From the NCBI RefSeq assembly GCF_054482525.1, contig NZ_CM137006.1: a stretch of 64,000 nt of DNA. One strand, written 5' to 3'. The translations under genes were made by a program, and so were the position numbers. Within the stretch, counting starts at the first letter, position 1; every line of letters begins with the position of its first letter. The notes under the pieces are model-generated. The model was not told the DNA's origin. It saw only the letters and a program-made list of their open reading frames with translations, and did no database searches. This document shows positions 1 through 660 of the stretch, in pieces.

Positions 1-346
1 GATCTTTAAATAAGAACGGCAAATTATAGATAGCATAAATATTATCAAAAGACTCCAGATCACTGGCGGAACCTTTGGTCATATCCAGTGCACCATTTTG
101 CAACAACTCCATAGTTTCTCGCGCATTACCCATCTGGCTGCTGGGATAAATACGGATCACCATATTACCTTTTGACAGCTGTTTTACCTCTTTCGCCAGC
201 TCTTCAAAACTCTGATGTACAACATGACTTCTTTCCAGGTTGTGTGCTAACTTTAACGTCACTTTTTCTGCGGCGTTTACGCCAGTGCTAACCAGAGCCA
301 GCAAGGATGCGCAGACTAATGAGCGGGTAAATGACCTCATTTTCAT
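1..346 (-). CDS. TRAP-type (DctP/SiaP family) periplasmic solute-binding protein, N-terminal ~115 aa only; gene continues beyond window start
   Basis: ATG at 346 (rc) preceded by AGGGAG RBS; signal peptide MKMRSFTRSLVCASLLALVSTGVNA; motif EVKQLSKGNMVIRIYPSSQMG resembles DctP-family SBPs; AT-rich promoter region 360-600 upstream. Confidence 0.6.
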   Translation of the reverse strand, partial: MKMRSFTRSLVCASLLALVSTGVNAAEKVTLKLAHNLERSHVVHQSFEELAKEVKQLSKGNMVIRIYPSSQMGNARETMELLQNGALDMTKGSASDLESFDNIYAIYNLPFLFKD

Positions 347-613
347 AAAAAAACTCCCTGTTGAAGGATGGAAATTGGTTGATATCTAATTGTGCTTATC
401 AGTGCTTTGTGCGACAAATTGGTTAACCTGTCTGACAACTTGTCTATGTTTATCACAACTTGAAATAAAGTCAGAAATTAAATATTAATTTTGTGCGCCA
501 GGTTGTACATGTTTATAATCAATAAATGATGAGTAAATATTCACTAAATATATATAATAAATATCGTCGATATTTATTCAGTAAGAAATATATTTTTGCC
601 GAAGTTAATTAAC

Positions 614-656
614 GGGGGGGGTAAAAGAAGTGATTAATGCGCCCGCAGGCGCATTA
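614..656 (-). terminator. Putative rho-independent terminator of the rdgB-hemW transcript (perfect palindrome TTAATGCGCC-CGCA-GGCGCATTAA followed on minus strand by U-rich run and C8 tract)
   Basis: Inverted repeat 633-656 directly 3' of hemW stop; G8 tract 614-621 on plus strand. Confidence 0.4.
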
Positions 657-660
657 ATGA

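Follow-up and report, generated by a model that had tools for sequence, protein, structure and literature searches.

A dctPQM operon beside hemW in Escherichia coli: a probable ancestral TRAP importer of hexuronates under ExuR control

Genes and features at the locus

The stretch of Escherichia coli DNA considered here, referred to as the window, is 64,000 nucleotides long, and its positions 1-346 hold, on the minus strand, the beginning of dctP, which heads an intact dctP-dctQ-dctM operon. The reading frame is free of stops from 346 to 1 and gives 115 aa (MKMRSFTRSLVCASLLALVSTGVNAAEKVTLKLAHN...IRIYPSSQMG...LPFLFKD), i.e., codons 1-115 of 328, an assignment that draws on the translation, on Pfam, and on the RefSeq annotation of an identical locus. 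A sequence-only reading of this DNA had proposed a TRAP solute-binding protein gene at this place, and the Pfam search that it named bears this out: the 115-aa fragment alone matches PF03480 (DctP) with E=5.8e-19 and 68.9 bits at a cut-off of 23.4. The full binding protein (E. coli accession WP_000784004.1) reaches 283.8 bits (E 2e-84) against the same family and 285.7 bits against NCBIfam TIGR00787, for which the cut-off is 175.05. Its N-terminus, MKMRSFTRS (K2/R4/R8), then a hydrophobic core and VNA followed by AEK, reads by inspection as a putative Sec signal peptide. In the AlphaFold model (pLDDT 80) residues 3-20 form a helix that leads into a low-confidence linker, and the top PDB neighbours of the model are the TRAP binding proteins of the EFI.

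The permease genes were expected beyond the window edge, and this is where they are found. The genome NZ_AP022261.1 is 100% identical across window positions 1-700, and there the remainder of dctP is directly followed, past position 1, by dctQ (167 aa) and dctM (433 aa), according to the RefSeq annotation. In the genomes with this identity over 1-700, the three genes are contiguous outside the window, the start of dctM overlaps the stop of dctQ, and the operon sits between hemW and yggM. DctQ matches PF04290 (E 1.5e-30, 106.3 bits) and DctM matches PF06808 (E 2.2e-121, 406 bits), both far over the cut-off, and DctM also scores 474 bits against TIGR00786 (cut-off 268). The gene order of K-12 does differ, as the sequence-only reading had expected: its hemW is convergent with yggM at a distance of 154 bp, and the spacer is filled with REP elements and carries no TRAP genes.

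The upstream neighbour is hemW, which encodes a radical-SAM heme chaperone and lies at 661..1797 on the minus strand. Over its final ~167 bp (661-827) the TRAP+ and K-12 alleles are 81% identical, vs 92-99% across the remaining gene, and the segment is part of a diverged TRAP+ haplotype. The spacer between dctP and hemW was first described as an AT-rich promoter region of 250 bp; the AT-richness holds (GC 31.8%, and 28.3% across 347-600), while the length is corrected to 314 bp (347-660). Similarly, a terminator palindrome containing a G8/C8 run had been noted, and here the terminator stands but the run lies outside it. The intrinsic terminator of hemW, identified by a terminator scan at 633..658 (minus strand), is the palindrome ATTAATGCGCC-N4-GGCGCATTAAT, with an 11-bp stem and a 4-nt loop, then CACTTCTTTT; its fold has a dG of -21.5 kcal/mol (z = -3.35), and the GC core of the hairpin is kept in Salmonella. 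The G8 homopolymer (plus strand; C8 on the transcribed strand) is a separate feature at 614..621, flanked by the hemW terminator on one side and the conserved promoter on the other. Its length varies by strain: five E. coli carriers show G8, G7, G12, or G7AG6, and Escherichia sp. MOD1 has GCGGGGGA. For the spacer, an Rfam scan returned only STnc130 (24 bits vs 55, E = 0.54) and an irrelevant lncRNA; these sub-threshold hits were put down to chance, and STnc130 is absent from the Salmonella locus.

Promoter and predicted operators

Upstream of dctP, an alignment of 27 taxa shows a series of conserved elements. The ribosome-binding site GGGAG (354..358, minus strand), assigned from the sequence and this alignment, lies 8 nt upstream of the ATG within the conserved block GCAnGGAGC. 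It is followed upstream by the block AGATATCAACCAAT (374..387, minus strand; consensus AGATATnnACCA), at least 80% conserved across the 27 taxa, which could be either the -10 region or a third GntR-type half-site, and farther away by the conserved block CGCACAAAA (489..497, minus strand). A scan of the minus strand gave no consensus sigma-70 promoter at the 9/12 level, and the hand-picked candidate TTGTCG-17-CACAAT was rejected, as it scores only 8/12 and is not conserved.

Between these blocks lie two predicted ExuR-like operators, both given without a strand. They were scored with a position weight matrix made from four K-12 sites only, those of the uxaC/exuT, uxaB (two sites), and exuR promoters, so that the motif stems from promoters genetically known as ExuR-controlled and not from footprinted sites. 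With this matrix, the promoter-distal operator AAGTTGTCAGACAGGTT (425..441) scores 20.0 bits and ranks first of 63,984 window positions; the training sites themselves score 16.4-23.3, and the top match elsewhere in the window reaches 9.3 bits. The promoter-proximal operator AATTTGTCGCACAAAGC (404..420), which has a TGT-N3-ACA core, scores 8.9 bits and ranks fourth of the 63,984, and it overlaps the candidate -35 hexamer TTGTCG. The centres of the two are located 66 bp (proximal) and 87 bp (distal) upstream of the ATG and thus 21 bp apart. Across genera, the proximal site is conserved as ATATGTCATACAGAAA, and the distal one is conserved as AGnTGTCnGACAAC in the 27 taxa.

A candidate CRP site, TGTGATAAACATAGAC (442..457, minus strand), adjoins the distal operator; its left half, TGTGA, is good and conserved, its right half is weak, and an A-rich stretch plus TGTGA is at least 80% conserved across the 27 taxa. 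Both operators and the TGTGA half-site are kept across these taxa, including those in which the locus is not syntenic, and the regulatory motifs of the promoter are invariant among the E. coli carriers examined. The uxaC/exuT promoter of K-12 has the same layout, a CRP site and then an ExuR-type site (TTTGTGATGGCTCTCACC...AAAGTTGTATGACAAGTT).

One further element may link the promoter to UxuR. The sequence GGTTAACCAATTT (416..428, minus strand) exactly matches 13 bases within the palindrome GTGGTTAACCAATTTC of the gntP-uxuA spacer in K-12; in genomic SELEX, UxuR bound that spacer alone. The window contains GGTTAACCAATTT a single time, where 0.10 matches would be expected by chance at one mismatch or fewer, and in the alignment it is confined to the Escherichia sequences, with no counterpart in the promoters of Salmonella, Klebsiella, or Kluyvera. 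With 2 mismatches, the E. coli spacer also accommodates the classical UxuR-type palindrome TTGGT-N2-ACCAA; this palindrome is not conserved in these same three genera and was therefore not taken as the main operator, the conserved signal across genera being TGT-N3-ACA. A strict two-site pattern (TTGTNNNACAA twice) had no match in the loci compared because the real sites are degenerate.

Distribution and ancestry

The operon is present in 1460 of 5426 complete E. coli genomes (~27%), at 97.7-100% identity. The carriers include unrelated types, e.g., an ST131 genome and O111:H8, and K-12, CFT073, 536, O157, and TUM10008 are among the non-carriers. The order hemW-dctP-dctQ-dctM-(yggM/ansB)-yggN is kept in Salmonella enterica, Citrobacter, Klebsiella, Kluyvera, Pseudocitrobacter, Phytobacter, and a cryptic Escherichia lineage. 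A genome scan found the operon absent from the representative genomes of S. enterica and of other named Escherichia species. The empty sites of E. coli are of at least three kinds: a 151-154-bp REP cluster (K-12, O157), a 68-bp REP (CFT073), and an IS1 deletion (TUM10008). Short-word BLAST of the K-12, O157, and CFT073 spacers for remnants of the operon gave only matches of 7-12 nt, mostly exact 8-9-mers; the recurrent ones lie in REP-like hairpins, and these scars are uninformative on the mechanism of deletion.

The sequence-only reading had suggested that the transporter may be an acquisition, and its patchy presence would agree with a recently acquired genomic islet, inserted horizontally between yggM and hemW, with K-12 showing the original empty site. 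The same can be said of its absence from the representative genomes just mentioned, of the GC content of the operon (44.5% vs 49-53% in the flanks), and of the ~19% divergence of the adjoining hemW 3' end between the haplotypes, which looks as if a foreign segment had entered by homologous recombination. This explanation is nevertheless improbable, given that the insertion point and orientation are the same in at least seven genera and that, between genera, the TRAP proteins diverge as much as the flanking core proteins: for Citrobacter amalonaticus, the values are 94% for DctP and 96% for DctM, vs 93% for HemW, 92% for RdgB, and 93% for AnsB. Moreover, the divergence among the unrelated E. 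coli carriers is 2.3%, which is typical of the core genome, the GC of the operon follows that of the host in each genus, no integrase, IS, other mobility gene, tRNA, or direct repeat was found at its borders, and the empty sites are heterogeneous, with no clean attachment site. The cross-genus synteny, the core-like divergence, and the differing scars therefore argue for a loss in K-12 rather than a gain here, and by these comparisons the operon appears to be ancestral in Enterobacteriaceae at the hemW site and to have undergone several deletions, one of them in the K-12 lineage. Repeated loss in many lineages might also be read, together with the low GC relative to the genome and the failure to detect a canonical promoter, as the sign of a decaying, non-functional remnant heading for loss in E. 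coli. This is highly improbable: each of the three ORFs retains its full length in the carriers examined, dctP differs between lineages by 21 nucleotides, all synonymous, with no amino-acid change (dctM by 28 nucleotides and 5 amino acids), and the regulatory motifs are invariant among the E. coli carriers and conserved across genera.

Predicted substrate

The substrate, given as unknown in the sequence-only reading, can be narrowed down by three independent lines, namely the solved relatives of the binding protein, the gene context of its orthologs in Aeromonas and Pantoea, and the ExuR-type operators described above, and hexuronates are the most likely class. As for the relatives, the closest PDB matches by sequence are 4ovr, 4n15/4n17/4ln5 (Bamb_6123), 4mhf/4mij (Bpro_3107), 4x8r, 4n91 (Apre_1383), 4n8y, and 4xfe, with E from 4e-68 to 2e-58. 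Those other than 4n91, 4mhf, and 4n15 are presumably hexuronate binders as well, judging from the titles of their PDB entries, and the cluster of hexuronate-binding TRAP proteins is said to be the isofunctional group of Vetting et al. In the same comparison, SiaP follows at 4e-40 and a C4-dicarboxylate DctP at ~6e-33. Compared with the nearest solved hexuronate binders, the protein is only 38-39% identical, a distance at which the specificity of TRAP proteins can shift.

The residues in contact with the ligand point in the same direction. Apre_1383 binds D-glucuronate, Bpro_3107 binds both glucuronate and galacturonate, and the conserved hexuronate contacts are two Arg and one Asn (PMC7660916), which align here with R151, R171, and N211/212. 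R171 is invariant in 16 orthologs, is aligned with an Arg of 4ovr and 4n15, and has as counterparts the carboxylate-binding R147 of SiaP and R170 of STM3169; R151 and N211/N212 are also conserved, and their counterparts in STM3169, R150 and N210, form hydrogen bonds to the uronate.

Regarding the gene context, the 60% identical orthologs of Aeromonas rivuli, A. molluscorum, and Pantoea sp. IMH are transcribed divergently from a three-gene uxa cluster, and exuR follows on the side of the orthologs, which thus stand between the cluster and exuR. The cluster consists of uxaC (670-693 bits, cut-off 387), uxaB (725-755 bits, cut-off 359), and a gene for a UxaA-like dehydratase, and exuR scores 442-501 bits vs 396; exuT occupies the corresponding position in K-12. 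At the E. coli locus itself, no catabolic or regulator gene is adjacent, and our literature search found no paper on its hemW-linked TRAP system. In Mangrovibacter, a neighbouring gene resembles a uronate-polymer lyase, and unsaturated or other uronates are therefore possible ligands.

This last neighbour, together with the generic nature of DctP-family membership, leads to the question of whether the system could instead carry another organic acid, such as C4-dicarboxylates, sialic acid, 2,3-diketo-L-gulonate (as a YiaMNO paralog), galactonate, or an unsaturated uronate. Some annotation pipelines do label genes of this sort as parts of C4-dicarboxylate or sialic-acid TRAP systems, the YiaM and YiaN equivalogs are weakly matched by DctQ and DctM, and an identity of ~39% to the solved hexuronate binders leaves room for it. 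Yet these equivalog scores are far below their cut-offs (37.9 bits vs 260 for YiaM, 296.3 vs 800 for YiaN), the SiaP and C4-DctP structures are 28-35 orders of magnitude behind the hexuronate cluster, and no nan, dcu/dct-regulator, or yia genes are nearby, whereas the 60% orthologs sit with the galacturonate pathway and exuR, and the promoter has operators of the ExuR type. A different acid is thus an unlikely ligand.

Proposed function and significance

Taken together, we consider it probable that this ancestral and intact dctPQM operon is an ExuR-controlled, high-affinity TRAP importer of hexuronates that was repeatedly lost in E. coli. Transcription would start within the 314-bp AT-rich spacer, past the hemW terminator, and ExuR would repress it at the two operators 21 bp apart, probably with some help from CRP; in Escherichia, UxuR may also act on the dctP promoter. 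The secreted binding protein would capture D-galacturonate and/or D-glucuronate in the periplasm by means of R151, R171, and N211/N212, and the DctQ/DctM membrane pair would take over the sugar acid, its import being driven by an ion gradient. Once inside, the sugar acid would enter the chromosomal UxaC/UxaBA/UxuBA pathway to KDG, and the TRAP system would complement the MFS transporter ExuT with a route of high affinity.

Among the important carbon sources of enteric bacteria are hexuronates, which come from host mucus, dietary pectin, and the glucuronides of drugs or bile, and, to our knowledge, ExuT is taught as the only hexuronate importer of E. coli. If the proposed function is true, about a quarter of E. 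coli, including an ST131 genome, would possess, controlled by the same repressor, a second route of high affinity that depends on a binding protein, and K-12-based models of the ExuR regulon and of how sugar acids are used would be incomplete for much of the species. More tentatively, the hemW-linked operon might be a high-affinity scavenger wired to both ExuR and UxuR and maintained as an ancient presence/absence polymorphism, with an effect on fitness where uronates are scarce. The near genus-level divergence of the hemW 3' end would then mark the polymorphism, and competitive fitness would be altered where uronates derived from mucus, pectin, or glucuronides are scarce, as in the gut, the urinary tract, or the macrophage; a role of this kind has been proposed for the Salmonella paralog STM3169. 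The locus also illustrates that a gene missing from the reference strain may reflect a loss in that strain and not an island. The operon is an uncharacterised system of a known kind of transporter: its family, the probable class of ligand, and the regulator are already known, and no principle is changed.

Comparison with known systems

We know of no TRAP system in K-12 other than YiaMNO, which takes up 2,3-diketo-L-gulonate. The hemW-linked operon shares with it the transporter family and the three-gene architecture, but it differs in locus and regulator, and it failed the equivalog models by the scores given above.

A closer parallel is STM3169-STM3171 of Salmonella Typhimurium LT2, a D-glucuronate TRAP transporter (Herman et al. 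2020, PMC7660916), in which STM3169 has a Kd of ~0.2 uM for D-glucuronate and which its authors propose as a high-affinity complement to ExuT (PMC7660916). Both systems are enterobacterial and of the DctP type, P, Q, and M are each encoded by a gene of their own, and catabolic genes are missing from the immediate surroundings. The two binding proteins share one cluster of solved relatives (4N15, 4MHF, 4N91) and conserve the carboxylate-binding Arg pair and the Asn. However, they lie at different loci, and the hemW-linked system is a paralog and not an ortholog. Three TRAP systems are given for LT2, all with gene numbers other than that of the hemW-linked one (PMC7660916), and these numbers, together with the numbering and identities of the residues, rule out that STM3169 is the Salmonella hemW-linked gene. 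The product of the latter shares 90% identity with the E. coli protein and carries H35/N36/L37, whereas N35/Q36 are reported for STM3169. With an assumed offset of +1, the E. coli protein departs from STM3169, which is specific for glucuronate, at two (L37 and A75) of the seven positions quoted for its binding site. The related Salmonella system has reportedly been linked to survival in macrophages.

The hexuronate-binding proteins solved by the EFI, i.e., Bamb_6123 (4N15/4N17/4LN5), the Xanthobacter protein (4OVR), Bpro_3107 (4MHF/4MIJ), and Apre_1383 (4N91), are the top matches by sequence (E 4e-68 to 4e-60) and also rank as the closest structural neighbours of the AlphaFold model (Foldseek E 2e-28 to 5e-26). 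Unlike the protein described here, they come from alpha-/beta-proteobacteria or Firmicutes, at the 38-39% identity given above, and they carry D and E at the positions equivalent to E77 and D238, so that the two acidic residues are exchanged.

Finally, the operon resembles the ExuT/ExuR regulon of K-12 (uxaCA, exuT, uxaB, exuR) in its predicted substrates and in its promoter, where a CRP site is followed by an operator of the TTGT-N3-ACAA type. ExuT itself, a hexuronate:H+ symporter, is a single-component MFS transporter, a class unrelated to the binding-protein-dependent TRAP systems. In E. coli, the TRAP operon further differs in having no linkage to the catabolic genes and in being carried by part of the species only. 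In Aeromonas and Pantoea sp. IMH, it is the TRAP operon that stands in the place of exuT, between uxaC and exuR.

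A TRAP Transporter Operon Downstream of hemW

The minus strand of window 346..1 holds a 115-codon open frame that continues past the window edge, includes the stretch IRIYPSSQMG and opens with a putative export signal, typical in form by inspection (MKMRSFTRSLVCASLLALVSTGVNA followed by AEK). The 115-aa fragment alone matches Pfam PF03480 (DctP, family-7 solute-binding protein) with E=5.8e-19, in agreement with the sequence-only reading of a partial gene for a TRAP solute-binding protein. Many complete E. coli chromosomes match window bases 1-700 with 100% identity, and in one of these, NZ_AP022261.1, dctP has 328 codons and is followed by the genes for DctQ (167 aa) and DctM (433 aa), all on one strand and placed between yggM and hemW; the permease genes are thus found where they had been expected, past the window edge. 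The three proteins each score well over the Pfam and NCBIfam TRAP cut-offs, and by every sequence criterion the predicted product of the operon is a DctP-type TRAP transporter. In K-12 MG1655, hemW (called yggW in the earlier reading) and yggM are convergent, as the earlier reading had stated, and lie only 154 bp apart, with the TRAP genes absent. The open frame, the PF03480 match, dctQ/dctM and the difference from K-12 bear out the initial observation on every essential point.

The hemW-dctP spacer (window 347-660) is AT-rich as described (31.8% GC), but it measures 314 bp and not 250 bp. The hemW terminator at 633-658 (minus strand) is a hairpin with an 11-bp stem followed by a T-rich tail (dG -21.5 kcal/mol, z = -3.35), so the proposed terminator palindrome exists, but the G8 run placed inside it is a distinct element at 614-621, just downstream of the terminator. 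The length of this tract varies among carrier strains (G7, G8, G12, G7AG6), and in a cryptic Escherichia lineage the run of G is interrupted. Because it falls outside the conserved promoter blocks, the tract is probably a neutral slippage tract. An Rfam scan of the spacer found no family. Elsewhere, the window contains a Sib antitoxin RNA (46659-46809) and 6S RNA (ssrS, 47458-47641), expected for this chromosomal region, and no tRNA genes in its 64 kb.

Distribution and Ancestry

Orthologs of the binding protein, at 84-94% identity, occur widely across the Enterobacteriaceae. The operon directly follows hemW in unchanged orientation, with yggM/ansB or yggN-yggL-trmB after it, in Salmonella enterica, four Citrobacter species, seven Klebsiella species, several Kluyvera, Pseudocitrobacter, Phytobacter, and a cryptic Escherichia lineage; a Pluralibacter MAG has the same neighbourhood except for ansB between hemW and dctP. 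The TRAP proteins diverge as much as their neighbours do, as exemplified by Citrobacter amalonaticus (DctP 94% and DctM 96% identical vs HemW 93%, RdgB 92%, AnsB 93%, and TrmB 95%), and the GC content of the operon tracks the host, going from 44.5% in E. coli to 51% in Salmonella, 52% in Klebsiella, and 56% in Kluyvera. Its borders, examined for an integrase, an IS element, a tRNA gene, or a direct repeat, show none of these.

Within E. coli, the complete operon is present in 1460 of 5426 complete genomes at 97.7-100% identity, the normal range of core-genome divergence, and the carriers are of unrelated types, e.g., one O25b:H4-ST131 strain and one O111:H8 strain. It is absent from K-12, O157:H7, CFT073, and 536, and the empty sites differ: in K-12 and O157 the site is filled by a REP cluster of 151-154 bp that matches Rfam naRNA4 (in the K-12 hemW-yggM spacer, L002 5465-5535, one REP element scores 60.9 bits vs the naRNA4/CssrE gathering score of 59.5), while CFT073 has a different REP spacer, 68 bp long. 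In TUM10008 (NZ_CP135658.1; L010, 849-1545), IS1A stands in place of the entire operon and the 3' end of yggM, and the dctP promoter region and the hemW allele of the operon-carrying (TRAP+) haplotype are retained; this is an independent and recent loss.

The sequence-only reading had suggested that the transporter may be acquired, which would make the K-12 arrangement the original one. Synteny across genera, divergence like that of the flanks, host-tracking GC, the lack of mobility marks at the borders, and heterogeneous empty sites leave this polarity unsupported. The simplest reading is that of an ancestral enterobacterial operon lost several times, including in K-12; the difference from K-12 is real, and its interpretation has to be reversed. 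The single odd feature of the locus is in hemW itself (window 661-1797, minus strand), whose last ~167 bp (661-827) are only 81% identical (~19% diverged) between the TRAP+ and the K-12/O157 haplotypes, with five amino-acid changes. The CFT073 3' end is intermediate (88% and 91% identity), identity over the remainder of hemW is 92-99%, and each allele is ~70% identical to Salmonella. Beside the indel, divergence approaches that between genera, a hint of a haplotype boundary that is either very old or imported.

The ST131 and O111:H8 strains and a wastewater isolate each have dctP, dctQ, and dctM at full length; compared with the window-type allele, dctP has at most 21 nucleotide differences and no amino-acid change, and dctM has 28 nucleotide and 5 residue differences. 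The full-length genes and the few amino-acid changes indicate purifying selection and not decay. Short MAG contigs labelled Collinsella sp., Bacillota bacterium, and Alicyclobacillaceae (L012, L013, L053) are 99-100% identical to E. coli hemW-dctPQM and are almost certainly E. coli contamination of the bins.

Promoter and Predicted Regulation

The 200 bp 5' of dctP were aligned for 27 taxa, among them Buttiauxella, Edwardsiella, Mangrovibacter, and Enterobacillus, where the locus is not syntenic. The alignment shows six conserved blocks: CGCACAAAA (window 489-497), an A-rich stretch with TGTGA at its end, AGnTGTCnGACAAC, ATATGTCATACAGAAA 21 bp beyond it, AGATATnnACCA (374-387), and the ribosome-binding site; CGCACAAAA and AGATATnnACCA, given on the transcribed strand, match no assignable factor. 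A TGT-N3-ACA element is common to the dctP promoter and to the K-12 promoters genetically known as controlled by the repressor ExuR, namely uxaC/exuT (TTTGTGATGGCTCTCACC, a CRP site, then AAAGTTGTATGACAAGTT), uxaB (CCTGTCGTACCAATT and GGTTGTATGACTAAT, 22 bp apart), and exuR (AAAGTGGTATAACAAAT). A position weight matrix built from four K-12 ExuR-promoter sites only (training sites 16.4-23.3 bits) was scanned over 63,984 window positions. Its best match, 20.0 bits at 425-441, is in the dctP promoter, centred 87 bp upstream of the ATG, and the fourth, 8.9 bits at 404-420, is centred 66 bp upstream in the same promoter; the second, 9.3 bits at 28415-28431, is outside it. Comparable scores are obtained for the orthologous promoters of Kluyvera (15.4 and 7.0), Salmonella (9.3), Klebsiella (8.1 and 7.0), and Aeromonas (12.8).

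Between the two predicted operators, and in Escherichia only, lies GGTTAACCAATTT, an exact copy of 13 bases of a palindrome in the gntP-uxuA spacer, which in genomic SELEX was the only region that UxuR bound. This 13-mer occurs once in the window, with 0.10 chance matches expected at ≤1 mismatch. The promoter elements do not vary among the carriers compared, which are five E. coli strains and MOD1, from the cryptic Escherichia lineage. On the grounds of their conservation and the matrix matches, the operon is placed, as a predicted member, in the ExuR regulon; CRP probably assists, and an input from UxuR in Escherichia is possible.

Predicted Substrate

The sequence-only reading left the substrate unknown; three independent lines, solved relatives, gene context, and regulation, now narrow it by pointing to hexuronates. 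The best solved-structure matches are EFI TRAP binding proteins (E 4e-68 to 2e-58), namely 4ovr, 4n15/4n17/4ln5 (Bamb_6123), 4mhf/4mij (Bpro_3107), 4x8r, 4n91 (Apre_1383), 4n8y, and 4xfe, with SiaP (4e-40) and C4-dicarboxylate DctP (~6e-33) far behind; the fold neighbours of the AlphaFold model (pLDDT 80) are the same EFI set. Apre_1383 binds D-glucuronate, and Bpro_3107 binds both glucuronate and galacturonate (Herman et al., PMC7660916). The conserved hexuronate contacts are two arginines and one asparagine (PMC7660916); in the E. coli protein, aligned with the solved structures, they correspond to R151, R171, and N211/212, which are invariant or nearly so in 16 orthologs. Since identity to the solved structures is only 38-39%, this line would be weak if taken alone.

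As to gene context, Aeromonas rivuli, A. molluscorum, and Pantoea sp. IMH each have a TRAP operon, 60% identical, that is divergent from uxaC, uxaB, and a UxaA-like dehydratase gene and is followed by exuR, each named hit being above its equivalog or subfamily cut-off. The genes uxaC and uxaB encode glucuronate isomerase and tagaturonate reductase, respectively. In K-12, the corresponding slot between uxaC and exuR is held by exuT, the MFS hexuronate transporter. In Mangrovibacter yixingensis (L043 3529-5541), the gene divergent from a TRAP operon of 82% identity matches oligoalginate lyase weakly (90 bits, far below cut-off), a hint that products of uronate-polymer breakdown may be the cargo of some orthologs. 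As a whole, we consider it rather likely that the operon encodes an ExuR-controlled, high-affinity hexuronate importer.

Relation to Known Systems

A literature search found no paper characterising the E. coli operon, which genome comparisons list under the annotation "TRAP transporter" and no more. The operon helps to understand how strains differ in their use of sugar acids and holds no conceptual surprise. Identity with YiaMNO is ruled out, the equivalog scores being far below cut-off. The characterised Salmonella system is STM3169-71, whose binding protein STM3169 was modelled on Bamb_6123 and has an affinity of ~0.2 uM for D-glucuronate (PMC7660916). The Salmonella protein encoded beside hemW shares 90% identity with that of E. 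coli and differs from STM3169 at two quoted binding-site positions, and the three LT2 TRAP systems listed in PMC7660916 all carry gene numbers other than the hemW-linked one; for these reasons, STM3169-71 is a paralog, and not an ortholog, of the hemW-linked operon.
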